From Rhizaria sp. SCN 62-66 (lineage: Eukaryota): a DNA stretch of 56,512 bases. The notes under the pieces are model-generated. The model was not told where the DNA came from, searched no databases, and saw only the letters and a program-made list of their open reading frames with translations. How positions within the stretch are numbered: position 1 is the first letter of the stretch; every line of letters begins with the position of its first letter. Positions 7,629 through 55,077 of this stretch are shown piece after piece. Both the position numbers and the translations under genes were made by a program. The DNA is taken from NCBI GenBank assembly GCA_001724265.1, contig MEDY01000035.1, forward strand, positions 62,001-118,512. Direction: 5' to 3'.

Positions 7629-10600
7629 ATGGCCAACACCACCATCAACGATCTACAACGGTACGTTACGCTATCTCGTTCCTGTACCCAAATATTCGTT
7701 CAGTCCAACTTCAACTTCCTAACTCATCCCTCATCTTATCACCACTCCGACATATCACACTCTGCGACCACACACACGCAGGTCGATAGAGACGGACTTC
7801 TGGCGTCTCGACAAAGACGCCGCGCTATTTGACCGCGCCCGCGCCCGCTTAGAAGCCTCTGTGCAACGCCGCGTCCGTTATGCGACGCAAGGCGTGCACG
7901 TGCCGCCCGCGGGCGCTGCTCTTCTTGCTCCCGGCGACGCCCCCTTAGAGCGCGCGCAACGGCTTGATTTCTCCGCGCGGTACCGCGGCCGGCCATAGGA
8001 AGTCGCCGCGCGGCTGAAGGAAGCGCGCGCGGGCGGAGCGCGGGAACGGCCGTGGCGCTCTGGCATGGCGCAACCACATCCACATTCACATTCGCACACA
8101 CCATCATCGTTGTCATCATCTTCGCACAACAACTCGAGCTACACTCAGCCAGCGAGCTCTCTTATAAGCGCAAGCGTGAGTGCGAGCGCGAGTAGGCCCG
8201 GTAGCGCCGTTACAAGGCCTAGTAGCGCTGTTTCGAGGCCAGATGACGCCACTTCCAGGGCTGGTAACACTGTTGCAGCATTACAGTCGCGGTTGCAATC
8301 GCAGGTGCCATCGCAATCATCTCCAGGCCGTTTCGCTCTGGCTCAAGTCAACAACGCTGCTTCCGCTAACGCGCCGCGCACACGCGACTGGGATGACGAC
8401 AGCTTCACTGGCGACAACAACGACGGCGACGACACCGCAAATCACAGTAGCAAGAACAGGAACAACACTGACGACAACGATAGCAGGCGAGATGGCAGCA
8501 ATGAGCGCGCTGCTGATGCTATACGGGCATCATTGCCCCCGCGTGCACGTTTGCTCTCTGCACTGAAGGCTTCAGCACCGGCCCCACGCATGCCCGCATC
8601 ACACAGCGCGGACGCAATCACCGTGCGCTCTCTGTGGGCTCCCGCACCCGCCGCCGCCGCCGCCGACGCGCTCGAGGCCGCGCGCCGCGTCTGGCTGGAG
8701 CTGCCCCCGGCGCGGCTGCTGCTGCCGACGCGCCCGCAGCCCGCGCCGCCGCGCGCGCTCTCCCCGACCTCCCAGGCGCTTGTCCAGTCGCAGCCGCTGG
8801 CCGCCCGCACCGCGCAGACCGCCGCGTGCGCCGCCGCGCCCCCACTGTCCGCGGCGGCGCTGCACAGGCTGCGGTGCATGGTTGCGCTATGGGGGAGCCG
8901 TCTCGCGGCCGGCGCGCCCGTCCCAGCCTCCACAGCCGCTGCGGAGGCCACGCTGGTCGCCGTGTACGTCCAGCACGCGCCTCAGTCAACCGCGGCGACT
9001 GCAGCGGCCACAACGGCGGCTGCTGCGGCTGCGGCGCGAGCAGCGGTGGCGGTGGCCGTGGCTTCCGGAGCGCTGCCGCAACCTAACTCAGGCGGGAACA
9101 GTACTGGGGAGCTGCCGACGCCGGCTCTGACGCCCGCGCAAGCGCCGGTGGTGTCACCGGCGTCCGCAGGGGGCTTCCTTTCGCGCGGTGTTGCGTCGTC
9201 ACAAACTTCACAAAATGCCCGCTCTGTGATGTCGCCAGCGTCGCCGCTCATGAGCAACAATGCTGCTTATTCCACGGTAACAATGGGCGCTAGTTCGCCG
9301 TTTACGTCCGCATTGCCGTCGCCGTCGGCGGCAGCGCTGCATCTGTCGCCTTTGTCACCCGCCGCCGCGGCTGCGACCCCCGCGACGGCCGCTACAGCCG
9401 CCGCTGCCGCCGTTGCTGCGACGGCCGCCGCGACGGCCGCCGCGGCCGCCGCAGCCGTCGCGCGGCCCCAGCGCGGCCGCACGGCCTGGGGCGCGCGCGG
9501 CTGGCCGCTGCGCGGCTTGGTTACCTGCCTTGGCGGCGGCGCCTGGCAGCTTGGCGAGCGCCGCAAGGACACGCACCTGTTCGGGTACGCGTGGGCTGGC
9601 GCGGAGACGTGGCGCCGTCGGGCTGCGCGCGCGCTCGCGACGCCCGCGCTCGCGGCTGAGGCGGCGGCGCGCGCGGCCAAGGCGTACAAACGCAGAAGCA
9701 GCAACAGCAGCCGCGGTGTCGGCGGCGTCGGCGGCGCAGGGCGCAGTGGCCGGCGGCAGCGAGGCTCTGATGCGACTGCGCACCCGGAAGCCGGGACTCG
9801 CTCTGGAAAGAACTCTCAGTCTGACGCTGCTGATGATGAAATGTCCCGTCCTGGGTTCCGCTCCCGCTCTGGTTCCCGGTCAAAATCCGGCACTCGTTCT
9901 GGCTCCGGTTCGAGCTCGGAGTCTGCTGAGGAGGCTGACTCATCTTCATCTCCCGAAGACGACGATTACGACGACGACGACGGCGAAGGCGGTGAAGACG
10001 GCGACGACGCGCGCGCCGCCGAAGCCATGCTGTTCGACGGTCTCTCCAGCGAGTCTGACCGATCTGACGACGATGTCCCCGGGTTTGACTCCTCCGGCGG
10101 CTCTGAGGCCAGCTCCGACTGCTCCGACGACTGCCACGGCGACAACGACGCCGACGACGCCGATACCGACGCCCAGGAGGCCGCCGCAGGCGCGCGCGCT
10201 GACTGGTACGCCGCGCGGCTGGGCGAATGGCCCGGGTTGGAGCCGCTGCGCCGCCGTGGCCGCCGCCGCGGTCGCGTATGCGCGCCGCCGCTCGCGCCCT
10301 GTCTACTGCACCCGCCTCTGTACGCGTCCACGGCCGCCGCGGTGCTCGCCGCCGCGCCGCTGCCCGCGGGCTCGAGACGGCTGCACACCAGCATCGGCGA
10401 GGTCGCCACTCTTGGTCGGCAGGGCAGCAGTACTGGCGCGCGCGGCGGCCGCAGCGACTTAGACAGCCGGGATAATGACAACGACAACGGCAGCGGCAGC
10501 GACGGCGACGGCGGCGGGAGTCTGCGGCGGCGCGGCGGCGGTGCGAGGCGCGGCGCGCGCGCTGTGACGGCGGCAACAATGGGGCCCGCCGCGCTTGATG

Positions 10601-13600
10601 CCGTCGACACCGCGATGCTGCTGATGTTGCCGCGACGTGCGCGCGCGAGGTACCGCGCCCGGCTGCTGCGCCGTGAGTTGCGCCGCCGCCGCGCCGCGCT
10701 GCAGCAGCAGCGGCGCCAGGAACAGCTGCAGCAGCAGCTTGCGCTGATACAGCAGCAGAAGCAGCAGCCGCAGCGTCTCAAGGGGTCCGCTGCCTTCGCG
10801 CCCGTCGGCTCTCCCACAGCCGCCACGTCAACGGTCGTCTCGACTCCACTCGCCGGTGTCAAGGCAAAGAGCGCTGAATCGACGACAGCGCGCAACCTGG
10901 CGGCGGCGACGGCGCAGCGCGCTCGGCCGCGGCGGGCGCTGAGCTTTGCCGCGCGCTTGCGCGTGCGTGTGCGCGCCGTCTTCGGCCTCGGCGGCACTGA
11001 CGCGGCCGAAGCGTTGGCTACCGCGCTGCAGCGCACCGCCGTCGCCGCTCTGCAGCAGCTGCGCGCGCCCGCGCCCGCGACCGCGACCGAAGCGCTGACC
11101 GTGATCCCCGCGCTGCACGCGCACGACCACGCACACTTACACGGACACGGCCGGCCCCCACCCAGCGCGCGCTTGCCGCCGCTGCGCCACCCCGCGCGCT
11201 GCGGCGGCGAGCTCTGCCGCCAGCTGCTGCAGGTCACGCGCGCCGTGTACCTTAACTTCCTGTGCTTGCGCGAGGCCGGGCTGCGGTTTGTGCCGCCGAC
11301 GCCGCACGCCGCGCGCGGGCTCGCCGGCCGCGCCACGCAGCGTGTTGTCTGGACGGACCGGCCCACGGTCGAGTCGCTCGCCGCGCGCCGTCGCGCAGCC
11401 GCCGCCGCGATCGCCACCGCTGCCGCCGCCACCACCACGAACGCGGTTAATGGCTCTGCGATGGGCAGTCCGATGGCGCCGCCCACAGTGCAAAGACAGG
11501 GCTCTCACTCACGCACTGCTGCTGGAGCTGCCAGTGTTGCTGCCAATAGCGCCACATCCGCTACCGCCGCCGCCGCCGCCGCTGCCGCCGCCGCTGCTGC
11601 TGCTGCTGCTGCTGCTGCTGCAAGTGCGGGAGCACAGGCTGACCGGGGCGGCTCGGCTGCACCTCTGAGGCACTTGCACGAGCTCGTCGCCGCTGCCCAG
11701 GCCGCGCGCGCTGCTGCTGTGGCCGAGGCTGCGTCGCGCCGCGCTGCCTAGGCGGCTGCGATTGTCACCGAGGCCGCGACGGAGGAAGCACTGGCGGCGT
11801 CGCTCGGGCGGTCCGCGGGCGGTGAGCTCGCGTACGTCTCGCGTTTCCCGCACATGCGTGCTCCGGACGCGCTTTTCCTCGCGGTCCCGGGCGCAGCGGC
11901 GGACGCAGTTCCGCCGGAGGAGCTCGTTGTACGCGCCGCCGTGCTCGCGGGCGACGCTACGGCCGACGACGCGCTGGTCACGCCCGCTGTGGCCGTCACT
12001 GGCGGATACGAGCCGACTCCGATGCCCGCGGGGATTGCAGCGCACGTGCGCGAAGTGCTTTCCCGCCCGCGCACGTCGTGCTCGCGCCTCATCAACTACT
12101 CGCTGCCGCCCGGCACTGAGCGGTCGGGCATGCCGCGGTCCACGCTCGGCCGCCCCGCCACTGCGGGGGTCGGGGCGCGGCTCGCGAACCACCACCGGCG
12201 CCGGCTCCGCGCCGCGCAGGCCGCTGGCGAGAACGCGAACGGCGGCAGCGGGAGCGAGGCGGCCGGGCAAGGATGGTCAGCGATTGCAGCCGCGGGCCGG
12301 ACCGGCGCCAGCTCCGTCGCCGCCTCTACTTGGGGCGGGGGCGCGCCGGCGCTGTACGCGGACTCCGAGGCCGCTGCCGAGGCCGCGGCCGGTGACATAG
12401 CTGCGACGATGATCGCAGGTGTCACCCCAGGCGGACCGGGCCGCGCGCCGCCCGCGCACCGCCTCGCGACTGCGGGTGAAGCAGCGGCGGCGCGCGCGCG
12501 TGCGGCCGAGCTTGAGGCGGCGGCGCCGACGCGTGACGTGAGCAAGAACGTGTTCGCGGCCACGCTCGCGGGCGGACGGCTGCCAGTGGCTCAATTCCGC
12601 AGCGGCGTGCTTGTCGCTGACGGCGAGATCGGCGGCGCGCTCGGCTTTATCGACGGCGCGCGTGTCGAGACTTTGCTCACGCCACAGGGCGCTGCGGCTG
12701 CGGGCACGGGCGCTGCTGCCGCGATGACCGCCGTTGCGGCAGCCGCGGCGCACACGGCCGCGTCAGTCGCTGAAGGCGTCGCCGTAACGCACGCAGGCGC
12801 GCGCCTATTAGCAGCGTTCTCTGCCTCTGCCGCGGCGGCCAGCGCGGCTGCGACTGCCGCTGCGAGCGCACGTCGTGCCAACGTCCCAGTCGACGCAGCT
12901 GCAGTGCCATCGCTGCCCGCCGAGGCCGTGTACGCAGTCTCCCAGGGCTTGCCCGTGGGGCAGCCAGATCACGCGCTGTGGCAACGCCAGAACCGGCGCG
13001 GCGCAGCGGGCGGCGCGGTGCCCGGCGCGGCCGCGAGCGCCGCCGCCGCCGCCGCAGCTGCCGCGGCGCGTGGCGTGCGCAGCGCGGATGACGACATGAT
13101 CAGCGCTCATTTCGCACCAGACGACGCGGCGGCAGTTGCGGCAGCGGCGCTGCTGAGCGAGGCCGAAGCCGCGCAGATGCGCCGCGTACACCAGACCACG
13201 AGTACCGTCACGCTCGCACAGTTACGCACGCGCATGCGGCTGCACGCCGCCTCCGACGCGCGCGCACAGCAAGTCGCGCGTTTTTTGCCTGAGGCGCTCA
13301 CTGCGTCGTCGGCGGCTGCCGCGGCTGCGGCTGCGGCGATGGCGGGCAGCGGCGCGCGGCGGGCGCGCAACCGCTCCCGCGCGCGCGCCGCGGCGGCTAC
13401 GGCTGCGGCGGGGCTGACCTCGACTGTGGAGGGCGGTGACAGCGCGGGCGTTGGCAGCATCGAGTCAGCCGCGTTGCTGCAGCTGGGCCGCGCTGCGACG
13501 TCGACGCGGCTCGACGAAGAAGGCGTTGCACAGGTTTCGCGGGCGTTCCGTGCGCTTGACGAACTAGGGCTTGAACATGAAGCCAGCGCGGACGCCAGCG

Positions 13601-14152
13601 CGGTCGAGCGTCGTGAGCGCGTCCTGAAGGAACTTAAGGAGGCGCGCAGTGAGCGATTGCGGTATGAGCGCGCGCGCAGCATCGCAGAGGGCCGTCCGCC
13701 GCCGCGGCACAAGAGATCCGAACCGGTACGTTCTTGTTATCTTTGCTTCATCATGTTAGAAATGGTGGATTCACTTTGTATTTACGCTTTGTCACATCGA
13801 TTTCTCATATTGTCAGATGTTATCTATTCTTTGTTTCGCATTTCTTATTTCATAGGAGTTGCCTCTGGCGCTTACTCGCGGTGAAGGTCCGCCCCTGTCG
13901 TTTACGTCACACTTCACCTTGGCAAACGCACCGTACCGCTCCCAATCCTTCCGCTTCGTCGAGCGCAACCTCGCCGGCGAGGCCGCGGCCACTGCGCGCG
14001 CCGCCGCTGAAGAGGAGCGCGAAGCCTCGGCCGTGTTGCGCGAGGTGAATCTGGTGCCGCCGGAGCACCACACACCGGCGCACGCGACGTCACTGCGCTC
14101 CGCCAGGGGCCGGGGGCTGCCAGCTGCGCCGAGAGGCAGCGGGCTGCTGTGA
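7629..14152 (+). CDS. Large Ala-rich hypothetical protein (~2090 aa), 3 exons, two in-frame TAG codons
   Basis: Exons 7629-7660, 7782-13725, 13856-14152; introns GTACGT...CAG and GTACGT...TAG join in phase (MANTTINDLQ R SIETDFWRLDK...; ...RSEP ELPLALTRG...). Track ORFs 8065..11751 and 11854..13884 share one frame, interrupted only by TAG at 7996-7998 and 11749-11751. Ends TGA. No domain recognised. Confidence 0.7.
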
Positions 14153-14261
14153 CACCGCTGAGCGCCCCCACGGCGCTTCTGACTGCGACTGCGCCACTGC
14201 AACAAACTGCGAATGCGACTGCGCCTGTGCGTGCCACTGTGAGCGTGGCGTTTGCTGTTGC

Positions 14262-14344
<83 letters not shown>

Positions 14345-17300
14345 CGTTGTGGGCTGCCACGGCTGGTGCCAGACATGAGTCCGCGGCTTTTCCCACGGCG
14401 CCTGCGCTTGCGCCTGTGTTTGCGCGTGCTCGTGCGTGTGCACTGACTGTTGCTGTTGTTGGAGTTGTTGTTGTGGAGGCGCTGTTGACTCTGCAATCGC
14501 GGGAGCCCACCGGCCATGTCCGCCGCCACTGTGCGGCCCGCTGCGTTGACTGTAGCCCCCATGGTCGCCGCTGTTAGGCGTGCCTGCGATGTTGCCCATA
14601 CCGTTGCTGTCGTATTCGAGACCGCTGCCATTGCGTTTAGACGCGTAACTCGCCTGAAGACGATCACAATCGCGATCGCGGTTGCTGTGGTTTAGTATAC
14701 TGCGGTTTTGGTCACGGTCACGGTCGTTGCGGTCGCGCGCGCCGTAGATATTGCTTCCGGGAGGGCTATTTATCACTCCCCAGGCTTCACGCGGTGGAGT
14801 CGACGCTGACCACGCAGAACCACTATACTGCGCATTGCTGATGTGTGCGCCGCTACTTTGGGGTGCCCCGTGATGTTGCTGTGCTTCACCGTGCTGCTGT
14901 GCGCCAGCTCCACTGTACGGTGTGCCATCGTACGGTGTCGTTCCAGCGCGGGACACAGTGCTATACGGCGTCTGACTGTGAGCCACGGCATTGTACGGCG
15001 TATGACTCTGCGGTGCACCGTTGTACGGCGTGTGACTGTGTGGCGCAGTCCTGTGTGGCGTGTTGCGATTTGACGCAGCGGCACTATAAGGTGTACTACC
15101 GTTATACGGTGTATTACCGTAAGGTGCGGCGGCATTGTATGGTGTGTCCATGTGTGGCATGTTGCGGGGCGACATACCACTGTGTGCAGACCCGGCGAAC
15201 GCGTGACCTTGTAGCCCAGAGCTTGGGAACGCACGACTCTGAGATCTACTATTTTGGAACGCGAGGCCCTGAAGCCCCGAACCTATGGAGCGCTGTTGCT
15301 GTTGCGTCTGCTGTTGGTAAGGAGTCCGCTGCAGCTGCTGTTGCTGTTGCATTTGCTGCTGATGTTGTGCAGGTTCACTAGGATGACGGCTATTTGCGCT
15401 GTGCTGGCGGGTGTTTGCCGCATTTGCACTGGCGCCACCCTGATGTACCGGTGGCCACATGTTCTCGCTGCCGATGCGGTCATCGCGCTCGTAGATCTTA
15501 GACCCACTGTTCCGATCGTGACTGTGATCGTAGTCCCGGCCATGACTGTGATTGTGCTTGGGTGGCGCCGGTGTCGCATACGTGTCAATATACGGGCTTA
15601 GCACACTCTGACCATTTTTCAGATAGCTGTTGTCGTATAGGGGCTCTTGCTTGATCGTCTTTACCATACCGGCGCTGTGACTGGCGAGATTAGAGCGCTG
15701 ATCGACCGTATCTGCACCCACGTGTCCCTCGAGCACCACACCGTGATCACCTCCGTCATCACTACCGTCGCAGTCCTGATCGCTGTCAACGTCTTCCCCC
15801 TGCGCGCGCAACGCCGCCGTGATCACCCTGCCTGCCGCGGCGCACTCCCCGCGCGCAGTCGCCGGCGCCGGCGCGGGCCCGATCAGCCGCTCCAGCGCGC
15901 GCTGCAGAGTGGCCGTGAGCGCGGCGTTGTTACGCACCGGCCAGAGCCAGCGACCTGTGGCGAGGTCGTAGCCCGCGGCACGGACCGCGGCGGCGGCGCC
16001 GAGGGCGGCGGGGCGGACCGAGTGCGCCGCGGGCAAGGGGGCGCGCTGGGCGACGGCGCACAGCGCGTCGGCCGCGGCGGCGAACGCGATGCTCTCTAGG
16101 GAGCGCACAAAACAACAACGGAGACTGTTGTGAGATGAGATATTTTGAATTACTTAGCACATCGATTATATATTCAAATAAAAAACGTATTTTCTTTCTC
16201 AATAGCGACTGTTTTCTGCTCTTGCATGTGCATATCACCGTACCAGTCTGACTCGCCGTGGCATCAGGTGCACTTAGCGCTGCTGCACGAGGGCTCGCAC
16301 TCGCGCCACCGCCTGAGTCTGAGTCGGCGGGGCTAATCAGTGTAAGCGCCGCAAGTGTGGCCGCCTCAGCCCACGGCCACGCGGCTGAGCGCAAGAAAAG
16401 CGCGTCAAAGCGGCACCGTGCAAACAGCGTGGCCTCGCGCCGCACGAGTAGCCGGCCAAACTCGGCCGCGGCGTCTCGGCGCACCCGCCTCTGAGAGCGC
16501 GCACTATCTGGATCACCAGCCGCACCAGCGTCAGCGCTAGCGCTGGAGCTGGTGCGTTTGTTATTGCCTGTTGGACATTTACGCTCGCGCTCTCGTTCCC
16601 GTTCACGCTCGCGTTGCTCTGCGTCGTCCGCCGCCTGTGCCGCGGCCTCAGCCTCAGCCACCGCCGCCGTGGCCGCCAAGAGCGCGCACACCGACCTCGG
16701 CCCCAGCGTTCCCTGTGCAACCGCTGCTCCCGCGGATCCAGTGTCCGCAGCGCCGGAGACCGTGAAGCCGGTCTGTTGCCCCGTGGTCGCGTCCGAGTCA
16801 GCGACTGCACTAGCGACTGCGGCGACCGCGATACGGTGCCCCGCAGTCCTGTGCCGCGCCGCCGCGACCGTGCGCCACCCGCCGGCGCGGGCCGCCGCGT
16901 CCTCGGCGACCGTGGGTGCGGTGACGGCCACAGCGGCGTCGGGGACGCCGACCAACCGGGCGGCGACGGCGGCGACACGGCCGGCGACGGACTCGAACGC
17001 GGCGCCGCTGGCGAGGACCGTCAGCGCGTCACCGGTCCCCTCATGGGTTCCTCGCTGTGTCCCATGCTGCGCGCCGCCGCCGCCAGTGTTCCTGTCGCTG
17101 TGACAGGAGCCTGTGGTGCGGGTGCTCGCGCTGTTGCTCTTGCGACTTTGCGTGGTGCTGCCGTTTGTGTCGTTAGAGTCTGAGGTGGTGGCCCAGAGCT
17201 GCCACGGCATCTCGACCAGTAAAGGGTGCCTCGGCAGCCCACACGACGGGCCCACTGCCGCAGCCACAGGCACACTTACGCCATTATGGCTGTTGCTCTG

Positions 17301-18633
17301 GCGCGGTGACTGTGCCAGTGCAGCGGGGCAGCACGCGAGACAGACGCGCAACCCAGGCAGAAACGCCGGGCCACGCTCCCCTTGCTGCTGCTGCTGTTGC
17401 TGCTGTTGCTGCTGTTGCTGTTGCTGCGAGTGCTGGAGAGGGCGTGCGAGCGCAGCGGCCTGCGCCAGCGCCGCAGCCGCTGCGCCCTGCGCTGCATCAG
17501 GCGACAGCGACAGCAACAGCGGCGCCGCTGCGTCAGTCCGCGTTGCGGCAGTGCGCGCAAGCATCGCAGCAATCCCACTGCCCGTGGCCGCACCGCCACG
17601 TTTCGTCCCCGCGTTCACTCCAGGAGCTGTGTTGGCTGCATTAGCAGGTGGCGCGGCCAGTGACTGGCGGAGCGCGCTTGAGGCGCGTCCCCTGCGCCAG
17701 CCTGCAGTGCCTGCGGCGGTCGAGGCTCTCGCTGCGATCGCCGACGCTGATGCGGAGGGCAGCACTGATGTTGATACCGACTTTGAGGGGGACAGGATGC
17801 TGCGGGTTGGCGAGACGAGGCCGGAGTCGGGCAGCGGCGCGGCGTCGGCGGGCAGCGGTTGCCAGCGCGTCGGCGAGAGCTGTGCAAGTAATGGGAGCGC
17901 GGCGGCGGCGGCGGGGAGCGAGGCTGCGGGCGGAGTGTGCAAGCGTGAGAGCAGAGAGACGGTCAGGCGGCAGTGACGCGGCTCAAACATCTACGGCATA
18001 AAGTCATAAGGAAAAGATACAAAACACAAGAAAAAACGTGAAAACGCGTTCTTTAAGTGTGCTGACAATGTGGATAAACGAGTCAAAGGGTTCCAAGTCC
18101 AAGAACGTTAGCATCGAGGCACGTACCTTGCTGGATATGAGGAGCGCTGCAAGGATATCAGTCTCTGGGATCGCAAGACGCACGTCGCCCGCCGCTGCGG
18201 CTGCAGCTGCAACAGACGCGCCCTCACCTGGCAGCGCGTCGGGCGCGAGCGCGCGCTGGAGAGCGTCGATGGCAGCGAACTTAAGCAGTTCGAGTGTGTT
18301 GTGCAAGGTTTCGACGCCCTGCTCGTAAAAGACGCAGAGCCGGACGACGAAATCAGTCACAAGCGGCCAGGGCGGCGCGGAAACGTGCTCGATAAGGTCG
18401 ACCCACTGCTGGACGGCGAGCAGCGCGGCAGCGTCGGGCGCGGCGGCGCGGAGGTTGAAGAGCGAGTGCTCCAGTGGCACTCCGGCGAAGCGGGCGCCGG
18501 AGGAGGGCTCGCCCAGCGCGGGCTCGCGCGCGAGGAGCTGGCATTCGGCGTCGCTAAACACTATGCGGAAAGAGTCGTTTGATTGGGTCGAGGGACCAAG
18601 CTCGCGCTTCGGGGGCGCCGTGCTAGGGCGCAT
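14090..18633 (-). CDS. Hypothetical low-complexity protein (~1419 aa), 3 exons, with T-P-Y repeats and polyQ
   Basis: Exons 18633-18127, 17990-16244, 16095-14090; introns GTACGT...TAG (phase 0) and GTACGG...TAG (phase 1) join track ORFs 18004..18657, 15930..17990 and 14090..16108 in frame. Start codon uncertain; an upstream exon is possible. Ends TGA. Confidence 0.65.
14252..14344. repeat. (TTG/CAA)n microsatellite encoding polyglutamine on the minus strand
   Basis: Near-perfect GTT run from 14262 to 14344 with one interruption at 14330; reads as CAA codons in the frame of the 14090 gene. Confidence 0.95.
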
Positions 18634-19363
18634 GCTTCGGGGGCGGTTGGCGCGCAAACGACTTGATGAGGGCTCGAATGGAACTACACCTGCTGTTGTG
18701 CTTTTCCTTATCCGTCAGTCGTTTGTCTGAGAGTAAATTGTAAAATAACAGAAAATATACATTTAAGCGAATATGTTTTGTTGCAATTAGCAGACGGCAG
18801 TGCGGCGAATTATTCGAATTTGAAGTTGTCAATTTATTTTCAAGTTGACAATAGCACTACGTAGCAGGCAGGTGGCTCGAGGCTGGCCCCCGACGTTCGC
18901 AGCGGCTTTGGAGAGCAAACAGGCGTGAATGGTGACGTATACACCGGTGACTGCATGGGAGCGTGCACATACGGCGGTCAAAGTTAGTTAGTTGAAAACC
19001 TTGTACGTATTGCTCTTTAAATCAGTTGCATGACATTTCCAGCGGCGTGTGGAAGGGGGACAAGCTCGTGCGCGCTGACTCAGGTGTCGTCGTCGAGTTG
19101 TGTGATGCAGTATATCACAATCAATCTTAGTATCCGTTTGAGTGATTTATTACAAATTGGAAATATGTTCTATACAAGAAATTATAGGATTGAGATAAAG
19201 TTATCTCACGCCAGCTACTATGACTTGAAGTGATGAATGATCGCGACTGTGAACACATAGTGCTGCGCAGTGCTAGCTCGATCGTTCACGTTATAACGCG
19301 CTATTATCATTATAGTATTCCATACAGTGCCATCTACTGATTCTACATTTGTTGTGTGGTCGT

Positions 19364-22407: not shown

Positions 22408-22443
<36 letters not shown>

Positions 22444-40095: not shown

Positions 40096-40138
<43 letters not shown>

Positions 40139-43204: not shown

Positions 43205-46200
43205 TTAGAACGAGGTGATGGGCTGGAGCAGACCAAAGGCGCTGGTACCGGACGGGATAGGCTTGCCAATGACGATGGCAGACGAGGGCGAGCGGATATC
43301 ATCCGTGTCGCCACGCATGCACGAGTCAAGGATGAACTTCATCGACGTCTCGAACGTCGCCTTCTGCAGCACCGACGCGTGTGAGTCCATACCCATGCGG
43401 TTCATCGGGGTGTATCCGCCCCAGAACGTCATGTAGTCGGCAATCAGCAGCAGGTGACGCGGGTCGACACCGATACCGTAGACGGCGAAGACGCCAGAGA
43501 CTTCCTCTTTGATGGCCGCGCGCGCGGCCTCGACACCGTAGCACTTGAGCAGAGCAGCGATATCGTTCGACTTAATGCGCGCAGAGTCGGCTTCTGGGTG
43601 CTGGAACACTGCGTGGAAGTTGACGCCCGCAGTCTGCACGATGCGCTCCTTGATGCCCTTGACGGAGCGCTCGAGCACGACGGCCTTGGTGATGTTCTTG
43701 GTCTGACGCACGAGGCACTGGTCCATGACCTTCTCGATGAGCGAGAGCATCAGCAGCTTGGGCTGCGACGCCTCCGTCACGATGTTGACTTCGAAGTACT
43801 TGTGGTGTTCCGTGTCAAACTCGACGTTGGAGATGTGCGGGAAGCGGCGCCAGTTGGACGACAGACGGCGGATCAGGGCTTCGAGGCTGTTCTCGTCGGC
43901 CTCGGCGGCCGCAGCAGAGGACTTGCTCGCCTTGGTGAGAGCCGACTTCTTGGACGACTTCTTGGAAGAAGAGCCGTCGTCGTCGTCGCTACTGTCGGAG
44001 CCGGAGCCAGAGCCGTTGTCGCTCGAGCTGTCGTCGTCGGCGTCGGTGGTGGCGGCATTGTCGGCCGCATCAGCGTCCTCAATCTCCTCCTCCTCCTCTT
44101 CCTCCTCTTCGTCGTCGTCGTACGAGACGTGCTCCTGGCCCTTGCGGCTGCGCTTCGAGTCCTTGACACCCTCTTCGTCCTGCTTGTTCGAGCGGCGCTC
44201 AGCGGCAGTGCTGCCGCCCTCGAGCAAAACGTCGTTACCGGCCTCGTCAATGTCGCCGAGGTTCTTGCGCTGCACCAGGGCCATGACGCCCGTGGAGCTG
44301 GACATGGCCACAGAGCGAAGCTTGGTGCGCACAATGGTGTTGAGCTTCGTCGCCATCTGCGTCGACACGCACTGCACTATCGAGCGCATGCCGAGCAGGT
44401 TCTTCTTGGCCCAGGCACTGCTGAGGTCCTTAAGCTGGACACGCACGCGGTACACGCGCTCGCCGTTGACGGCGCCGAGCGACTGGCGCACGTCGATGCG
44501 CTCAATGCACTCGTTGAGCGAGATCCGGTTCAGCTTTGCAGCGAGCATCTCGGCGGCGTCGACGGGCGAGCCGGGCATGATGGGGATCTCCATGATAGGC
44601 GTGGACATGTGGTCAGAGGCCGTCATGATGATCTCACGCAAACGCGGGATACCGAGCGTGACGTTGGCACCACCGTGACCGGCAAGGTGGAACGTGTTGA
44701 GGGTCATCTGCGTCGACGGCTCACCGACGGACTGCGCTGCAAGCACGCCGACGTTCTCGCCAGGAGGCACGAGGCAGCGCGCAAAGTTGAGGTTCATCAT
44801 GTAAGCAAACTTCTCGGGCGTCATCGCGCCAGCGATGCTGTTGCGAAGGAGGTCCATGTTGGCAGCCTGCGTGGCCGCGACGGCCGTCAGCGCCTCGAGC
44901 TGCTGCTGCTGCTGCGCGGTGGCCGACGAACGGGAGACAGCCTTGGTGAGCGACGCGATCTGCGCCGTCGTTTTGGCGTTGTCGGCCTCGAGCGCGAGCA
45001 GCCGGCGCTCCAGAGAGACCTGGGCGCGCGCGGCGTGGCGCAGCGACGAGTCCGGGTCCGCGGAAACGTAGGCCGAGACCGAGTCGTGGAAACGCTCGGC
45101 CACAGCGCCGAGCACGGCACCGGGCGGAAACGCGCTCTCGATGGGGATCATCGTGTCGATCTCGTTGCGGATCGCGCTGATGGCCTCGAACCGCGATTGG
45201 CGCTTGAAGGCAATGCGTGCCTTGAGCTCGGTGACCTTGCTCTCCTTGCCGTCCTTGATCTTGTCGGCCAGAGAGCGGTCCTCCTTGGCGGCCTCGTGTG
45301 CGGAGGCTTCCTCGAGGTCGGCCAGCTCCTTCTGCTTCGCCTGGCGCTCCGACATGTAACGCTCGGCGCTGACGCAGTCGAGGATGTTGGTCGCCGTGCT
45401 GGGGTTGAGCTTGTGCACGAGCGGGCGGTAGTTCTCCGACAGGAACGACAGATTGCCGAGGTATGCAGCCTTGGTGATGTCGATCGAGTCCTCACCGTAG
45501 TGGAACTGGACGACCGAGCCGTCCGAGTCGCGCACAGTCTGGTCGTACTGCACCGTGAGCGACTCAAGGTGTTTGACCAGGCAGCGCTGGAGGTAGCCGG
45601 AACGCGACGTCTTGACGGCGGTATCGACGAGACCTTCACGGCCGGCCATGCAGTTGCCGACGATCATGGGGCGCGACGCATATTCAATCTCCTCGGCAGA
45701 GTTGGAGCTGGAGCTGCAGCGGGCACGGCGGGTGACGATGAGACCGTGCGGGGGCACAGTGACACACCAGACGTCGCCCGTGTAGGCAACGGACTTGACG
45801 TCGGCGCGCGAGAGCACAGGCGCGGCGGCGCGGTCGAGATCAGTGTAGTGCACAGCCCAGGCCTCGGTCTCGGACGACTGGCGGGTGAAGAAGGCCGAGT
45901 AACCGGCGTGGAGGAGCGCGACGATGAGCTCGTCACGCAGCGCCACAGACGCCGTGAAGATGCAGTTGTCGCTGACACTGGAAGAGGAAGAAGAGCCGTT
46001 AGCGGTGCGGAGACCGGTGACGAGAGCGCGGAGCTCCGGCACCGAGAGCGTCGCCCACCACGAGGGCAGCGTCTTCTCAGTCTTGGCACCGCCGAACTCA
46101 GCGGCAAAGACAGCGAGGAGCGCGGGCGCGGTGACCGCCACCACAGTGCGGCCCTCGGACCCAGCCTCAGTGGTGGCGCACTGCAGACCGAGGTCGGCGG

Positions 46201-49200
46201 TGAGCTGGCGCACGTACGCCGCGCCGTCCGCGGTCGTGGCAGTGACCGTGAGTGCAGTCGCAGAGGCAACGCCGGCAGAGAGCCAGTAGCCGACGAACGC
46301 GTTGAAGGCCGTGCGCTGCACGTCGGTGGCGATGTTCAGCCGCGCGTAGACCGCGTCGACGGCGGACGTAGCGGCCGCGACGATGCCGTTCTCGGCGTAG
46401 CCGAACATCTTGAACGACGAAGGCGCATTCGGCTTGAGGAGCTCCTCGGCGGTCACCTTGACCGGGGACGCGGCCTTGTCAGACTGCAGGAAGAGGTCGT
46501 GCTCGCCGGTGACAAGCAGCGACACGCGGTTGCTCTCCTCCGTCGAGTCAGCGCAGGAGTCGGTGGCCCAACGCGCCTGCTCGGCAGCGTGGGTGACCGA
46601 CACCATGGGCTCGCGGGCGGGGTCGTGCGCGCGGCGGACAAAATGCGTCGCGGGCTCGTACGCCAGCACCTTGCCAGCGGGGTCGTAAGAGGCAAAGCGC
46701 AGAGACTCGCCGGCAGCGAGCGCGCGCTCGATGGCGGGGCCGAAGAGGAAACCGCGGTCCGTGAGCACCTGGTGGTCCTCGGCGAAACAGTGGAAGTAAT
46801 ACTCCTGCGGGCGGATACCGGTGAAGAAGCGCTGCGAGATGTAACCACCGGCGCGCGGCTGCGGGTCGTAGCGCGCGAACGAGGGCAGAGTCTTACCGGC
46901 CTGCGTGGTGGGCACACGGCGGCCTTCGAGCTCCTGCTGGCCGAGCAGGCACGAGATCTGCGAGTGGTTCACCATGGAGCCCTTGGCGCCGGACAGAGTC
47001 ATCATAGCCATGTTGTTGCGCGGGAACGGCACGCGCTGGCCACCGGGCAGACAGGCCGAGATGATGGCCGACGTGCAGCCGTTAAGAGCGCCCTTGACGG
47101 CGCCGTCGAGCAGCTCGCCGGCGTTGGCCGTGGCGCCGAAGAAGCGCTGGATGGCCATGTTGACGGCGTTGGACTCGAGCAGATCCTCCTTCTTGGCGAC
47201 CGAGAGACCGGCACACTCGGCGGCGGCGGCGATACCAGCGAGCGCAGAGTCCTTAATGAGGTTCTGGCGCGCCTGGTCGGCCGCGGGCAGCAGCAGCATG
47301 TCGTCCATGCCGCACGTGAAGCCGTCGTACTGGAGCACGCGGGTGAAAAGGCGCGCGAAGATGGTGAGCAAGTCACCCGCGGCCTTGGCGCCGTAGAGCT
47401 CGTACACGGCGTGCACGAGGCCGTACTTGGACGCGCCGAACTGAGCCTTGTCGATAACACCCTGCACGAGCTCGTTGTCGCGGACGATGACGGAGCCGTC
47501 TTCCTCGGCGGCTTTGCCCCACGAGGAGCCGGGCACCTTGGCCTTGACGGGGTTTAGGTTGAGGGCGGGACGGCCGTACGTGACGTGGTCCATGACGCAC
47601 GAGATAACCTGCTTGCCAGTCCACAGCGCGCGCGGCTTGAGGATGGCCGGCACGGGGGTCGCCAGCGGCGCGTTGAGACCGGAGTCGGAGACGCCGAGGT
47701 AGAGGAACTGCTGGAAAAACTCCTTGTTGAGGAAGGCGTCGCGCTGCGTGAGGCGCACGCCGGCGACGACGTGGTCCTGGATGAGGCCGCGGAGCGGGTT
47801 GCCGGACGTCGGCACCGTGTACTGGTTGTCGTTGTTGCAGATGTCGTAGGCCTCAACGCGGGCAAGCTCGTTCTGAGGGAAATGGAGGTTGATCTCATCA
47901 CCGTCGAAGTCGGCGTTGTACGAGTTACAGTTGGCATAATGCATGCGAATCGTCGACTCGTTGTACAGCACGCGCGCGATGTGGGTCATCATCGATGGCT
48001 TGTGCAGCGTCGGCTGGCGGTTCACCAGCAGCACATCACCGGACTTAAGGTGACGCAACACAACCTTGGGTCCCGCGTCGCCGGCGTCGGATGAGTTGAT
48101 CATCTTCTCCACGCCCACGGCGCCCGAGCCACGGCCAGGCTGCGAGGACGCGTCGGCGTTGAGCGTCTTGGCCAGGGCGGTGCGCTGGTTCAGGTCCATC
48201 ATCTTGAGGTCCACGCGGCGGCCGCGCCCGTCGATGATCGAGTTCGCACCTGTAGATCGATTGAGAGAATCAAGAGAGGGAAAAAAGAGTGTTGTGAGTT
48301 AAATGAAAGTTGATTCAAGAGTGCATTATGAACTAGTATTGTTGTTAGAGCAAAAGATCAGACAGACGCCCATGTCTCCACGGGGTACAAGATAAAGAAT
48401 CACAAAGTTTCATATGTCCCTATCTAGAGTATCATCATTAAAAATTGCAAAACAATGAAAAAAGAAACGCAAAATGACAATAGAATGGTGAACGTACCAG
48501 GGTGAACGTCAGGGCCGTTGATGACGGCCTGGCGGAGCTCCTCGACGTTGTAGGGCGTGACAGGCTGGGGATAGGTGAGAACCTTGGCAAAGATCTCCGG
48601 CACGCCGATTTCCTTCGTGTGCAAGTACGGGTCGGGCGAAATAACAGAGCGCGCGGCGAAGTTGACACGCTTACCCATCATGTGCTTACGGAACAGACCC
48701 TGCTTCTTCTCGAGAACCTGCTTGATACCGGCGCCTTCGCTCTTGGAGAGCTGCGAGCCCGTCTTCTCAGAGTCAAACAGCAGGTTCACCTGGTGCTGCA
48801 GCTGCACCCAGGCGTGGATCACCTTGTTGCGCATGTCGTCGCCCATGTTCTCCACGGCAGCAGCGCCGCCCGCGCGCATCGCGGCATCCTTAGCCGAGGC
48901 GCCGGCGCCAGCGGCGACACCGGCGGCGGCAGAGGAAGACGCGGCGGCCGTCTCGGTGACGGTGCGGAGGATCTCGTCGTTGAGGTCGAAGATCTTGCGG
49001 TAGCTGACGTTCATGTCGTTGTCGAAGGCCTCACCGTTGACCATGCGCGGCGGGCGCAGACGCGAGGGCGGCACCAGCAGCAGACGGTGGAAAAAGGCGC
49101 GGTAGTCAGCAGCGTTGAACGAGGGCGACGCGACGGCGTAGGTGGACTCGGGGAAAAAGAGAAGCTTCACGAGGTCGTGCTCCTGCTCCCACAGGTACTG

Positions 49201-50373
49201 CATGTGGCGCTCCACTTCGTTGGGCAGCAGAATGCGCGTCTCGGTTGTCTCCGTCACGGCCACGGACGAGGCCATGACCGCAGACTCCTTGAGGTTCTTG
49301 CCGCTGGGAGGCGCAACCATGCCGTCGTTGTCGTCGTCGTCGTTGTCGTTCTGGCGGCCCGCGGCGTCGTCTTCCGACATGTCCGTCTCGTTGTCGTCGT
49401 CGCTGGCGTCGTCGCTGCCGGACTCGCCGTCCGAACCGCCGCCGCGGCGCTTGGCAGCGGCCTTCTTCTTGGCGGCCGCGGCGGCGGTCTTGGCGCGCTC
49501 CTTGTCGAGCTTCGCCTTGTTGCTGGCGAGACGCTTGTCGAGGTTCTTGCCCGTGACAAAGCCGCTACCGGCGACCTTGCCGTCGGAGTCCGTCATGGGC
49601 GCGGGGCCCGAGAGGACGGACGAGATGACGATGTTGCTGTTCATGTTGGCCTTTTGCGAGGTCGCCGAGGGAACCATGAAGATCTTGGTGAAGCCGTCGC
49701 GACGGAACTTGGGCGAGATGGCCTTGCAGTGGGCGCACTTGACGACGCCACCGCAGGCAAGCATGAAGTTCTTGATGAGCTTGTTGCGGATGTTGACGTC
49801 GTGCATCGAAAGCTTCTTAGAGCCCTTGCGGCGGTCGCACTCGCGTGCGGCCTTGGCGATCTCCTTGTCCAGCGCCTCGAGCAGGGCCTCCATCGAGTCG
49901 TCGATCGCGTTCTCCGAGTCGTCCTTGCGGGTCTTGAGGGCCGTGGCGCGGGCGGAGAAAAGAGACTCGACCTCGAGGGCGCGGGCGATGGAGCCGGCCT
50001 GGATGTAGAGCAGCTGCGCTTCGAGGATCTTCTTCTTCAGCGCCGGGATGCGGAGCTTGTGGCATTTGAAGCACTTGATCTGCAGGAGGCGGTAGAGCTG
50101 GGGGAACATGAAGACGTTGTAGACGGGCACGGCGAGCTGCAGGTGGCCATTGTGACCGGGGCAGTGCTTGTCGCCGAGACCGCATGTGTGGCACTTCTCG
50201 AACATGTCCAGCGCGCCGAACGCGCGATCGTAGAAACCGCCACGCACGGGTTGGCGCAGAGTGTCGAAAGAGAAAGAGTTGGTGATTTGCTTGACGCTGA
50301 GCATCTTGATCTCTTCATCGTTGAAGAAGCCGAAGCCCAGGCCGACGACCTGCTTGTCAATGATTTCCGGCAT
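43205..50373 (-). CDS. RPA1: DNA-directed RNA polymerase I largest subunit (RPA1/A190), 2 exons, intein-containing precursor of 2306 aa
   Basis: Exons 50373-48498 and 48249-43205 (intron GTACGT...CAG, phase 1, giving HP-G-ANSII). Zn clamp CHTC...CPGHNGH, KQGLFRKHMMGKRVNFAARSVISPD, NRQPTLHKPSM, catalytic YNADFDGDEINLH, Pol I-type [36 protein letters not shown], acidic expander-like loop, no CTD. Ends TAA. Confidence 0.98.
45653..46789 (-). mobile_element. Intein (379 aa) with degenerate LAGLIDADG homing endonuclease, in frame within RPA1
   Basis: 1137-nt in-frame insertion between EYYFH and CMAGREG. Block A CFAEDHQVLTDRG, block B LLVTGEHDLF (TxxH), EN-like blocks FVGYWLSAG, LVTGLRTANG and IFTASVALRDELIVALLHAG, block F YTGDVWCVTV, block G PMIVGN followed by Cys+1. 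Confidence 0.95.
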
Positions 50374-50892
50374 CGGGCGCCTCGATCACTACACGGGTCA
50401 GAAAAGCGGGGGGAAACTCTGACGCGAGGGTCTGTACAGCAACAAAGGGCGCGGGCAAGCAAGAATGAAAAAAAAAGGGCACGGGAGGCGTGAGGAAGCG
50501 AAGTGGCAGCGAAGGGTTTCCGACTGGCAAGAGCGTTGCGCGAAAAGAGAAATAGGGACACATATTAAACCCCACACGTGCAGCCATCTTAATAATGAAT
50601 AGAACACGGTGCGGTTAAAGCAAGGCAGCTATTAATTTCCTATTGCAGTGAAGAAAGTGGCCTGTTTGGGACGTTTGCCGAACCAGTCTCGACTCGCTCG
50701 ATCGCGGTGCTTCGGCCCAGACAAAGTTAAGCCGCAGCCAGCCCGACCGGCCCGAGCCGACCGAGCGACCGAATGCCTGACTGAAAAGACATAAAATGAG
50801 TTGAAACGAACTTGAAACTAGAGTGTATTAGATTTATAATCAACTATATAACAATAAAGCAGTGTGATAAATATCAATATTGCAGTGTTATT

Positions 50893-53800
50893 TTAAGGGA
50901 GCCAGTCCTCAAAGAGGGCGAGCAACGCATCGAGCTCGCGCAGGTTGCGAATCTCCGCCACCGCGCTCCGGCCCGCCAGTGGCGCCACGTTGCGGAGCTC
51001 GCGGAACACACCGCACTGCGCAAGACAGTCTGCTGCGCAACCGGGCCCGCACTGGATGAGCGTGCCGTGGGCCACGCGCGATCCCAGAGGCGTCATCGAT
51101 TGAAAAGGCCGCGCGGATACCGCCTTAGCAAGCGGAGGCGTATTCGCAGTCGCAGTGGCTGCAGCTACTGGCAGCGCAATGGATGTTGTCGTAGTATCGC
51201 AGCAGCGGGCAATGTCAGCCGCACAGTCGTACGCATTGGTCCGGTCAGCAAACCACCTGCCCAGAGCCTGCGACTGCGCCTGAGCAGTGACAAGGCAGTA
51301 TCGCGGGCCGCCCAGCGCCGCCACAGCCGCAACAGCCTCTGCAGCGTTCTCGGCTATCGCGCCCACTGACGCGGCCGCCTCTGCAGCCGGTGGTGGAGCT
51401 GCGAGTGCATGTACAGGCAGCGCGGCGATACGTTCACCGGGAAACGCAGGTGCAAGGCCGAGGAGCATTGCCCAGGCAAACGCCCACATCAGCCCGCCGC
51501 GGTCACAACTCTCGCCGTCACAACAGCTGCCGTTGTTGTTAATGTGGTTGTTGTTCTCCTGCTGCTGCGCGACGGTGACTGCAGCAAGATCGACGCGGTC
51601 TTCCTCGAGAGCAAGCGACACAAGCACGGCGCGGGCGGCGCGAACGCCGGGCAGAGCGCGGAGGGCGCGGGCGGAGGCGCGCACGCGGGCGGCCACGGGG
51701 GCGGGAACCAGCCGCGTCAACGCAGCCACGGCCGCAGCGGCAGTGGCAGTGACGTCCGCAGCGGCGGCAGGAGTAGCGTCTGCGTTGGCAGTGTGATTCG
51801 CGCCGGACAGCCACGCCTCAATCGCATTAGTGTTGCTCGCGCCGAGGGAACCTGTCGAACTGGTACCTGCGGAACCTGTGGCACTTGTGGTACTTGTGGT
51901 GCCTGCAGTGCGGAGGCAGTCGTAGAGCAGGCGCGCGCGCAGCAGCTGACGGGCGCGTGCAGCGACAATCTCCCCTTCAGTGCGCTGCACACGGCCACCA
52001 TTACCGACAATATCACAGTCGTCCGCCATAGCGACAGCGGAGGCGGTGGTCGCGACTGAGCTTGCCTCAGATGAGACATCGGCGGCAGAAGGTGGGTCAG
52101 AGGCCAGCAACGCCGCCGCCGAAGCGCTCCAGTTCTCGTGTGCGGCATTAGCGGACTGTGGCAGCGCGAAATGCTCGGTTTCGGCCGCAGTGAAAGGAGA
52201 CCGGCGTCGCAGCCAGTGCGGGAGCGGGGTGACTGAGATGTGCCTGTGCCACAGAGCCGCCCAGCTCGCATCCGGACCCGCCGACTGTGGCTGCTGTGGC
52301 TGTTGATGCTGTTGTGGCTGCTGCGGGGTGGGTGATGGCAAAGTGCGCGGCACAGCGGCGTAGGGAAGCAGCGCGGGCGGCACGTCACAGCAGCGCGCGC
52401 AACCAACGCCACTTTTGCCACAGCTCTCTGTGATGTTTGTCTCAGTCGAAAGGCCAGCGCAGGAGTCACACAGTGAAATCGCGGGCGCAGAGGTCGGCAG
52501 CACAGGCCCGGTCAGCGGGGGACCGAAGATAGCGCGGGCCAGCTCGCTGGCCGCGGCCGCCGCAGCCTCGTACACACGCGCCGCGGGCTCGCTGTCACTC
52601 GAGTCGCCAGCGCCCGTGCCCGAGTCAGAGCCGGAACCGGTGCCGGTGTCGGCGCTGTCGCCGGGACAGTCGAAGCGCAGCGGGAGGGAGGTGAGATCCC
52701 AAACGAGACCGTGTCGCGGCGCCATAGCGAGCTCGAACTCAGTCTGCTGCTGCTGATGCTGCTGTTGCTGCTGTGGGTGCAGTTGTTGAGAGAGAATCGT
52801 TGTGTCGGCGACCCCAAACCCAAAGGCAGGGTTTGCGCCGGTCGCGGGGCCTGCGACTGTGTGCGGCGCAGTGACCGTGAGCACAGAGCCTGCGACTGGA
52901 GGCAACGCCCAGCGCGGCGGCCGTCCCGCCGCGACCCAGTCCTCCGGCGCAGCAACATCATCAGCTCCCGCGGGCGCAGCCGCAACTTCAGCGGTGGCGG
53001 CAGTGGCGCGTGCAGCGGCGGCGTCGGCGCTCGCCTTGCGCGCGCGCGCGGCGTGCACCGCGGCTGCGAGAGCGACAGCCGCCGCGGGGGTTGTCGCCTG
53101 CGCCGCGGCCGCGGCCTAGGCAGCGGCGAGCGCGGCGTCAGCAGCGGCGACGGCGGCGAGTGCGGCGTCAGCAGCGGCGACAGCGGCCAAAACGGCCTCG
53201 TGCGCACTGGCAGACGCTGTAGGGGACGCTGCAGCGGCGCTGCCGGCGCCCATAGGCACAGGCGCAGGCGTAATGTCTCGAGGCGTCAAACCACGAACCG
53301 TGTTTAACTTCGCACTGGAATTGGCCGTGTTTGCGGGGCCGCGCCGGAGCCAGGGCTCCGAGCCCGCCAGCGCCCCCGCGGAGACGGTGGCTGCGAGTGC
53401 GGGTGCGCAGTGCGGCGTCACAACACAGTGCGCGCCGACCGACGGCTGAGGGCGCGGAACATCTGGCCCAGCGCAGTCAACATACTGCTGTTGTTGCTGT
53501 GCGCTGTGGAGTGTGTGGTCGGCGGAGTCAACGGGGCCCGGGACGAGCACGGGCGCGGGCGCGGACTCCGGCCGGTCAGAGAAAAACGCCGGCGTGAACG
53601 ACGCCTCCGTCGAAGTCGCCGCCGCCGCGGCGCCACTCGCTGCCGGACTGGAGGCGTACCCAGCGCGCGCTGCGGCCAGCCCAGACTGCGCCTCGGCCCG
53701 CGCCAGCGCCAGAGCACGCGCGGCGCGTTCGCAGCACGAGTGATCCCGTGAAGAAGCGTCACCGTGCGAGGCCCAGAGGTCGGCCGTGGCAACGCGGCGG

Positions 53801-55077
53801 CGGATCTCCCACGCCAGCGCGTCCCCCCGCCCGCCGCCGAGCGCCGCCAGCGCTGCTGATGGCGCCAGTCGGGCCGCTGCGGCCGCGAGGGCGGTCTGCG
53901 CGGTCTGGAGCACGCCGTGGGCGTGGGCGGCGGCGGTGTACGGCGAGAGCAGAGGGTGGGCGATGGGCACGGCGGCGGGGCCCGAAAGCGGCCCGCCGCG
54001 CGCACTCTGGCCGCAAAAGCGGCAACACGACGCGGCTGACTGCGGCTGGGACTGAGACTGCGTCTGATGTTGCGTGTGGTGTTGTAAGTGCAGAGGCGGT
54101 TCAGGGCCCAATAGCTGGCTCACGGTCACCGCATGCGTGCGGTTCGCAGCGTAGTAATCACAGTCATCGACGGTTAGAGCATCTACCGCAGTCGCAGGCG
54201 TCGTCTCAGAGGCGATATCGGCCTCGGCGAGCGGGAACGGCGTGGCGGCCCAGACCGCAGCCCACACGTGCGGCGGCAGGGGCGGATGAGACTGCAGCGC
54301 ATCGGCGCGCTCGATGCACTCTGACAGCCACGCGCCGCCCGCAGCAGCCGCGGGCGCCGTCGCCAGCGCACTGCCGCCGCCGTCGCCGCGAGCGAGTGTC
54401 GTTTGCGACTCTGAGGGGCGCAGTGAGGCGGCCCAGCGAGCGGACTTCTGCTCGGACCGCCGCAGCTCGACGGCGCGGGCGATGGCGGCGCGTGCGGAAG
54501 ACGGCGGCAGCGCGCGCGGTAGCGCCGTCACGGAGTAGGGGGCCGCAGCAACCGCCGCGGCGGCGGCGGCGCGGGAAGAGGACGAGGAGGACGAGGAGGA
54601 CGAGGCAGAGGCGTAAGCGGTGGCGGAGGCGGCGGCCGTGGCTGGGGAGGTGAGGCGGCGGCGCGCGTTGGCGAGCGGGACCTGTGCGGGGTGCCGCGGC
54701 GGCAGCAAACGCAGGCAAGCGTCGGTGACGGCCGCGGCAGCCGTGGCGGCGGCGGCGGCGTCGGCGGCGGCGGACACGGCAAGGAGCTCGTCCAGCACGA
54801 ATGCCAGCGAAGGGAAAGCTGCGCCGATGGCCACCGCGGCCTGTAACGGGGAGAGCAGGAGCCCCGACAGCGCGGGCGGGCGCGCGCCGGCGTCGCGTAG
54901 CAGCGCAGCGAGCAACGCAAGGAAAGGCGGCAACAGTGTGGGTGCGCCGAGCAGCGTGTGTTCGATGAATCCCGTGAGCGCGGCTGAGAGCGGCTCCAGC
55001 GCAGTCGTCGCGTACGGGTCAGCCGCGTGTGTCAGCGCAGCCGCCGTCTCGCACAAGGATAACAAAAGTGCGTCCAT
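50893..55077 (-). CDS. Ala-rich hypothetical protein (~1394 aa), one in-frame TAG
   Basis: Track ORFs 53116..55077 and 50893..53058 share one frame, separated only by TAG (53118-53116) inside a poly-Ala run ([14 protein letters not shown]). There is no AT-rich spacer between them, and the downstream ORF starts at GTG. Ends TAA. Confidence 0.7.

Follow-up and report, generated by a model that had tools for sequence, protein, structure and literature searches.

Does the organism behind contig MEDY01000035.1 (deposited as Rhizaria sp. SCN 62-66) translate the codon UAG? The stretch of the contig analyzed here, positions 62,001 to 118,512 of the forward strand, is 56.5 kb long and is referred to below as the window. 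It is eukaryotic nuclear DNA of an unplaced lineage, and four of its long reading frames are interrupted by TAG, six times in all. A sequence-only reading of the window had proposed that UAG is a sense codon in this organism and that UAA and UGA are its only stops; when we checked the translations, the six TAGs lay where that reading had put them, in frame and in the peptide contexts it quoted. On balance we lean toward the view that UAG is translated and that UAA and UGA terminate, because the frames are continuous and carry coding signal across the TAGs, a conserved domain lies downstream of one of them, the features of a gene end are missing at all of them, the TAGs are stable across samples, and TAG is absent from 13 terminators. 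The four genes and their TAGs (asterisks in the peptides) are as follows.

7629-14152, plus strand: gene A, modelled with exons 7629-7660, 7782-13725 and 13856-14152, ending at TGA 14150-14152
7996-7998, plus strand: TAG 1, codon 83 of gene A, RGRP*EVAARL, an uncertain site followed by an in-frame ATG at 8065
11749-11751, plus strand: TAG 2, in the middle of gene A, SRRAA*AAAIV, preceded by 1,250 codons and followed by 710
21348-22988, plus strand: tRNA-splicing-endonuclease-like gene, ending in TGA (PF01974, E 1.3e-4, a weak match below the curated cut-off)
21495-21497, plus strand: TAG 3, near the 5′ end of the endonuclease-like gene, RGDPT*LRP, an uncertain site
21567-21569, plus strand: TAG 4, near the 5′ end of the same gene, MQSPE*QSGQQ, followed by CAG TCA
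33169-41937, plus strand: g33058, a low-complexity orphan of about 2,920 codons, with an AT-rich stretch after its terminal TAA
39493-39495, plus strand: TAG 5, in the middle of that gene, PAMSL*LTRG, preceded by 2,108 codons counted from the ATG and followed by 813
50893-55080, minus strand: g50893, an orphan gene of 1,395 codons, ending in TAA followed by AT-rich sequence
53116-53118, minus strand: TAG 6, in the middle of g50893, with 653 codons before it and 740 after

The interruptions are of one kind only. Over about 14,640 codons in 14 coding pieces (our own coding models, with one piece of 196 codons left out) the in-frame stop triplets are six TAG, no TAA and no TGA, in agreement with the earlier statement that no other internal stop occurs. 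In their two alternative frames these pieces contain 92 TAA, 83 TAG and 455 TGA. Since TGA is the commonest stop triplet off frame, a TAG-only pattern is unlike unselected sequence, in which six TAGs out of six would have a chance of 0.13^6, or about 5e-6 by our arithmetic. Read with TAG as sense, the four frames extend from stop to stop for 2,053, 552, 2,959 and 1,434 codons. UAG would be used about once per 2,400 codons, its six occurrences confined to 4 of 13 genes.

Three of the six sites, 11749, 39493 and 53118, lie well inside frames of 1,400-2,960 codons, and it is these that carry the argument. A codon model was trained on the TAG-free genes of the window and used to score 300-base windows in all six frames with stops treated as neutral; one training piece, amounting to 580 of the 7,804 codons, was out of frame by one base. 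The frame that holds the TAG was top-scoring in 16 of 16 windows at 11749, in 20 of 20 at 39493 and in 15 of 16 at 53118, and scores before and after each TAG were alike. Past the TAGs the frames run on for 710, 813 and 740 codons (2,263 in total) without a further stop or frameshift, which bears out the description of these frames as otherwise continuous. In g50893 the downstream part is also conserved: the last 295 residues match P0127, a related protein from a different organism, with 41% identity (E 2e-19), so the C-terminal part that follows TAG 53118 is not decaying sequence.

Real gene ends in the window look different from the TAGs. Our own gene models reproduce the 13 ends counted before, eight of them TGA, five TAA and none TAG, in a sample that is small and rests on those models. 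In the 150 bases beyond the stop, GC content is 0.37-0.50 at 11 of the 13 ends, compared with 0.58-0.82 past the six TAGs and 0.59-0.80 within 100 bases on either side of them; the two ends without a drop are those of the convergent pair at 14090-14152, the exception that had already been made for an overlapping pair. Judged from the C-termini of homologues, UAA and UGA are shown to be genuine terminators in this organism. The alignment of its RNA polymerase I largest subunit (RPA1) reaches residue 1719 of the 1720 of human RPA1 and is followed by TAA, that of its phosphomannomutase (PMM) comes to within two residues of the end of a solved PMM and is also followed by TAA, and the frame for AP-1 gamma adaptin meets TGA at the point where a 63%-identical relative, a JGI protein, ends as well.

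The TAGs are also found again outside the source assembly. Sequencing runs (X2-X5) were compared with the window as contigs, not raw reads; X2 and X3 give identical tables and are probably one data set, drawn from a further sample of the source study or from a sister study. DNA contigs from X2/X3 cover 5028-8112 and 21091-21903 with 0 differences, reproducing TAG 7996 in the one case and TAGs 21495 and 21567 in the other. Over 11634-11951 the window agrees, without a single difference or gap, with a contig of X5, the poly-A RNA library of another study, and in that contig TAG 11749 is intact and unspliced; the RNA pieces listed cover this TAG only, of the six. For g50893 the evidence lies in the boundaries of recorded open reading frames (ORFs). 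A protein of 653 amino acids (aa) that ends right before TAG 53118 is recorded on six contigs from three sources in a public protein collection, a 721-aa protein begins at a GTG 19 codons past the TAG, and another (P0125) begins 130 codons past it. The ORF from the first ATG after TAG 11749 (11854-13881) is likewise recorded on four contigs. Exact look-ups gave no match for the ORF upstream of 11749 or for the ATG-started endonuclease ORF, nor, in other data, for either of the ORFs that flank TAG 39493. An identical 7.4-kb piece (L001), found in a metagenome scan with RPA1, stops 354 bases short of TAG 53118. The warning that annotation under the standard code would split these genes was apt, the 653-aa and 610/721-aa halves of g50893 being stored separately in public collections.

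Several observations weigh against the translation of UAG. The customary proof of such a code is a single residue that aligns with UAG again and again; word-indexed searches, a full HMMER scan, Pfam and PDB yielded no homologue over any TAG position. Residues 40-1434 of P0004 and residues 1-500 of gene A (with TAG as Q) had no match in the word-indexed searches. The HMMER scan of 1.84 billion representatives with 50896-54495 returned only the query's own two halves and one C-terminal relative. Among the four read-through proteins Pfam gave the weak endonuclease match only, and PDB gave low-complexity or chance matches only (low-complexity matches alone for the 33169-41937 gene); gene A matched nothing in either. 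The genes that can be aligned lack the codon: there are 0 TAGs in some 4,200 conserved codons of AP-1 gamma, RPA1, PMM, the DUF6787 protein and the membrane protein, and no TAG lies inside a conserved domain. The window holds no tRNA gene, and an Rfam scan of it gave no match. The absence of TAG from 13 gene ends depends on how the frames are read, for under the standard code the six TAGs end six shorter ORFs, and an alternative splice of gene A (3′ site 13816) would end that gene at TAG 13853. A relative of the window's RPA1 from another metagenome, intronless, with a GC content of 0.50 and 46% identity (L002, 8465-13327), has a frame that ends in TAG nine codons past the end of the alignment and so appears to use TAG as a stop; any change of code would then be confined to a narrower lineage. 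In-frame ATGs stand downstream of each TAG (those at 8065, 11854 and 39673 among them), and the X5 contig possibly comes from DNA in the RNA library. Finally, the three sites near 5′ ends may belong to leaders and not to coding sequence. At 7996 the coding score favors no frame (it is ambiguous over 7696-8295), and TAGs 21495 and 21567 come within the first 80 codons of their gene, where the coding signal is weak. That 7996 is coding is suggested by the ATG at 7629, which splicing joins in phase to the long frame. From 21495 on, frame 0 has a weakly positive score, and the open, weakly coding frame after 21567 contains no ATG for 85 codons, which suggests that translation starts upstream.

What else could account for the TAGs? 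Under the standard code they would terminate, either because four genes were recently truncated, most simply by changes of CAG to TAG, or because each split frame is really two adjacent ORFs; the part downstream of a TAG would be made from an internal ATG (those noted above, or the start of P0125) or not at all. We consider this unlikely, truncated genes included. In its favor, no other codon that becomes TAG by a single change is as common as CAG (537 codons). If transitions occur at double the rate of transversions, then by our estimate from codon usage about 64% of newly arising nonsense mutations would be TAG, so that six out of six (0.64^6, about 0.07) opposes truncating mutations only weakly. 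The TAGs lie solely in orphan, low-complexity proteins, in which truncation might be tolerated, and TAG would end 6 of about 19 ORFs, an ordinary share. In these respects, one transition from an abundant CAG and in weakly constrained proteins, the sites resemble premature-stop pseudogenes or strain-specific nonsense alleles; they differ from both in that there are several in 56 kb, stable across samples, with downstream frames that are intact and partly conserved. Truncation would have to have struck 4 of 13 genes in a single 56-kb window, to have become fixed across the samples' assemblies (at 11749 in a second study as well), and to have left the 2,263 codons beyond the mid-gene TAGs with unchanged coding scores and g50893 with a conserved downstream part. 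Separate ORFs, for their part, would lack the AT-rich spacer present at 11 of 13 real ends, and would share the upstream frame by chance at the three solid sites with a probability of 1/27 (our arithmetic). Alternatively, UAG may be leaky or ambiguous, ending some genes while a near-cognate or weak suppressor tRNA, perhaps in a context-dependent way, lets ribosomes pass it in these long disordered proteins. The great rarity of the codon (6 in about 14,600) and its position in low-entropy, Ala-rich or Q/S-rich segments would suit such a mechanism, and a sample of 13 gene ends leaves room for TAG terminators elsewhere. The motif of programmed read-through is a stop followed by CAR YYA, and one TAG of the six (21567, with its CAG TCA) fits it; the other five share no downstream context, the base at +4 being G, G, C, C and G. 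With 0 TAG terminators among 13 ends, and since inefficient read-through would yield little of the conserved C-terminal domain of g50893, we regard leakiness as improbable.

It is also very improbable that the TAGs are removed or altered in RNA, through unusual in-frame introns or through editing that turns UAG into a sense codon. Three AT-rich introns do use TAG as their 3′ splice site (at 13853, and on the minus strand at 17991 and 31534), and a candidate intron of 36 bases at 39460-39495 (GTGAGC..CTAAC..TAG) is a multiple of three in length and ends exactly at TAG 39493. That candidate, however, is far shorter than the introns of 91-250 bases found here. A scan for GT..AG pairs gave no candidate spanning 7996, 11749 or 21567, and those at 39493 and 53118 start from poor 5′ sites, have a GC content of 0.53-0.79 (0.71-0.79 at 53118) and would mostly shift the frame; none of the TAGs combines the organism's own 5′ site with AT-rich content. 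Around the TAGs the codon model scores the sequence as in-frame coding, and the X5 contig keeps TAG 11749 unspliced and unedited. A-to-I editing of mRNA, converting UAG to UGG, occurs in filamentous ascomycetes, and its occurrence here is unlikely given that the best named AP-1 gamma matches listed belong to plants, green algae, a haptophyte and a chromerid, with no fungus among them. Assembly or sequencing error, a possibility that the sequence-only reading had itself raised, is barely conceivable. Coverage of the source is low, with a contig word depth of about 5-7 in X2/X3, and TAG 39493 has no match in a second data set. The five other TAGs, however, turn up again in other assemblies or follow from the ORF boundaries on four to six contigs from several sources, and random errors would not all give TAG.

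We therefore return to translation of UAG, which best explains the three mid-gene TAGs. This much of the original proposal stands; its further contention that glutamine fits best is unsupported, for the searches gave no homologue over the TAGs. One might guess at glutamine, which is one transition away from CAG and reads naturally at the six sites, as would several other residues; mechanistically, leucine, alanine and serine appear equally open. Two of the three solid TAGs lie inside poly-Ala runs with the common context GCTGCC-TAG-GC, and they account for two of the three CCTAGG sites in the window. We read the common context as an effect of composition, but Ala, Leu or Ser are left possible by it. 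A tRNA with a CUA anticodon, together with weakened recognition of UAG by eRF1, as in known UAG-only variants, would allow ribosomes to read through the TAGs. All six TAGs lie in weakly constrained parts of orphan proteins, of low entropy, rich in Ala or in Q/S, or of low complexity, and so sparing a use would be expected of a young or poorly decoded sense codon. We speculate that UAG could be at an early stage of capture, gone from gene ends and re-entering coding sequence only in disordered linkers, with Ala, Leu or Ser rather than Gln as its residue. This is a distinctly doubtful suggestion, prompted by the poly-Ala context at two solid sites and by the possibility of a synthetase that ignores the anticodon; were UAG to be read as alanine, there would be no nuclear precedent.

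The window as a whole varies in GC content from 0.49 to 0.76 per 2 kb (0.65 for the contig) and carries genes on both strands with AT-rich spacers between them, including several long orphan proteins rich in Ala, Ser and Gln. Its other genes are these.

NCA2-domain protein, ending in TGA
4302-7079, minus strand: AP-1 gamma adaptin, intronless, ending in TGA, without in-frame TAG
g14090, ending in TGA at 14090-14092
19364-20900, minus strand: phosphomannomutase (PMM), with four AT-rich introns, ending in TAA
g25067, ending in TGA
29259, minus strand: FG-rich gene, ending in TGA
30742: membrane protein, ending in TAA
43205-50385, minus strand: RPA1, RNA polymerase I largest subunit, with exons 48427-50385 and 43208-48298, ending in TAA, without in-frame TAG
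DUF6787 protein, ending in TGA

Pfam matched Rpb1 domains 1-5 in the window's RPA1. Introns whose borders could be set, two in gene A and four in PMM, are 91-250 bases long, with a GC content of 0.41-0.47 where measured, and their 5′ sites read GTACG[TC] or GTATGT. The first intron of gene A (7661-7781, GTACGT..CAG) is AT-rich and joins the ATG at 7629 to the long frame; the product is an Ala-rich orphan of about 2,100 aa. Most likely gene A splices out 13726-13855 and ends at TGA 14150-14152, overlapping its convergent neighbor g14090 by about 60 bases at the 3′ ends (14090-14152), the sole pair of genes without an AT-rich spacer. The three acceptor TAGs, at 13853-13855 on the plus strand and at 17991-17993 and 31534-31536 on the minus strand, stretch ORFs beyond the real exons if read as sense. 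The ORFs 18004-18714, 15930-18107 and 14090-16153 are probably one intron-containing gene, inside which the apparent TAA end at 15930 probably lies; that end was set aside. We also set aside a TAG-ended plus-strand ORF at 29461-30348, the antisense shadow of the FG-rich gene, and the plus-strand ORF 30628-31563, which is antisense to the membrane-protein gene ending in TAA. A trinucleotide run at about 14230-14330 encodes poly-Gln in g14090, poly-Asn or poly-Thr in other minus-strand frames and poly-Val on the opposite strand, and a GCN run at 11551-11633 encodes poly-Ala in gene A; both are break points in the assemblies of other runs. Many of the listed contig joints and loose ends lie in GC-rich repeats and come from other organisms, and we drew nothing from them; a joint of depth 39 at 11744 in run X5, about ten times the depth of this organism, went unused.

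Sequence from the window is present in metagenomes of bioreactors, wastewater and activated sludge from six studies, indicating an uncultured organism. The best named matches of its AP-1 gamma are from land plants, green algae, Emiliania (a haptophyte) and Vitrella (a chromerid), at 38-53% identity. A fungal origin, first suggested by the NCA2 domain and by GTACGT..CTAAC introns, was abandoned, there being no fungus among the named AP-1 gamma matches listed. Over 5964-7029, within the AP-1 gamma gene, X4 and X5 contigs differ from the window at third codon positions, with spacings that are multiples of three, which points to a second strain or species, closely related to the first, in the samples of 2025. 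The AP-1 gamma of another assembly of the same organism (P0005) is identical save for a deletion of 32 residues in an Ala/Pro-rich linker (about 4920-5020), which is either an allele or a collapsed repeat. One relative of the protein (P0021; JGI, 1,367 aa) carries about 560 extra residues, inserted midway through the adaptin N-terminal region; starting with C and ending ..VGN before T, the insertion looks intein-like in its sequence. A scan of genome collections with AP-1 gamma turned up an intron-rich eukaryotic contig with a GC content of 0.53 and an AP-1 gamma gene (L003) in a metagenome-assembled genome labelled Verrucomicrobiaceae. It is probably contamination of that bin, and as a source of more DNA from the present organism it was rejected, being unrelated.

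Changes of UAG alone, with UAA kept as a stop, have been described in only a handful of eukaryotic lineages (PMC5304391, PMC11687900). In the fornicate Iotanema spirale UAG encodes Gln and UAA and UGA are stops, a conclusion supported by hundreds of alignments and a change in eRF1 (PMC5304391). The window resembles Iotanema in that only UAG occurs in frame, UAA and UGA are kept as terminators, and the code would be the nuclear code of a non-ciliate protist; it differs in having no TAG at an alignable position, in the far greater rarity of the codon, and in belonging to a GC-rich genome of an unplaced lineage. In the rhizarian exLh (Sainouroidea) UAG encodes Leu, with 384 in-frame UAGs in 71 genes, conserved genes included and often at conserved Leu positions, and the terminators are UAA in 56 and UGA in 15 of 71 transcripts; the in-frame UAGs and the restriction of terminators to UAA and UGA gave the first evidence of the change there (PMC5304391). 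Here too UAG alone would be affected and genes end only in UAA or UGA (5 and 8 of 13), whereas the TAGs number six in 4 of 13 genes, with none in a conserved domain. Phyllopharyngean ciliates have undergone independent changes of UAG to Leu and of UAG to Gln, documented partly in metagenome-derived genomes and accompanied by suppressor tRNA genes (PMC11687900). Discovery in an environmental assembly and the restriction to UAG are points in common; in those ciliates UAA is the preferred stop and tRNA(CUA) genes have been identified, whereas the window is not ciliate-like, with its GC content of 0.65, long genes, GTACG introns and use of both TGA and TAA as stops. In the limited literature searched we found no report of such a code in wastewater or in a GC-rich non-ciliate eukaryote.

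The proposal is readily testable, since longer contigs of the organism (118 kb and 193 kb) and a poly-A RNA library exist in public runs. If it is correct, a new lineage would be added to those that use a known, rare variant of the code. Changes restricted to UAG bear on the question of a mechanistic coupling between UAA and UAG, and a further non-ciliate case would be an independent data point on how reassignment starts, especially in a GC-rich genome in which the codon is rare.

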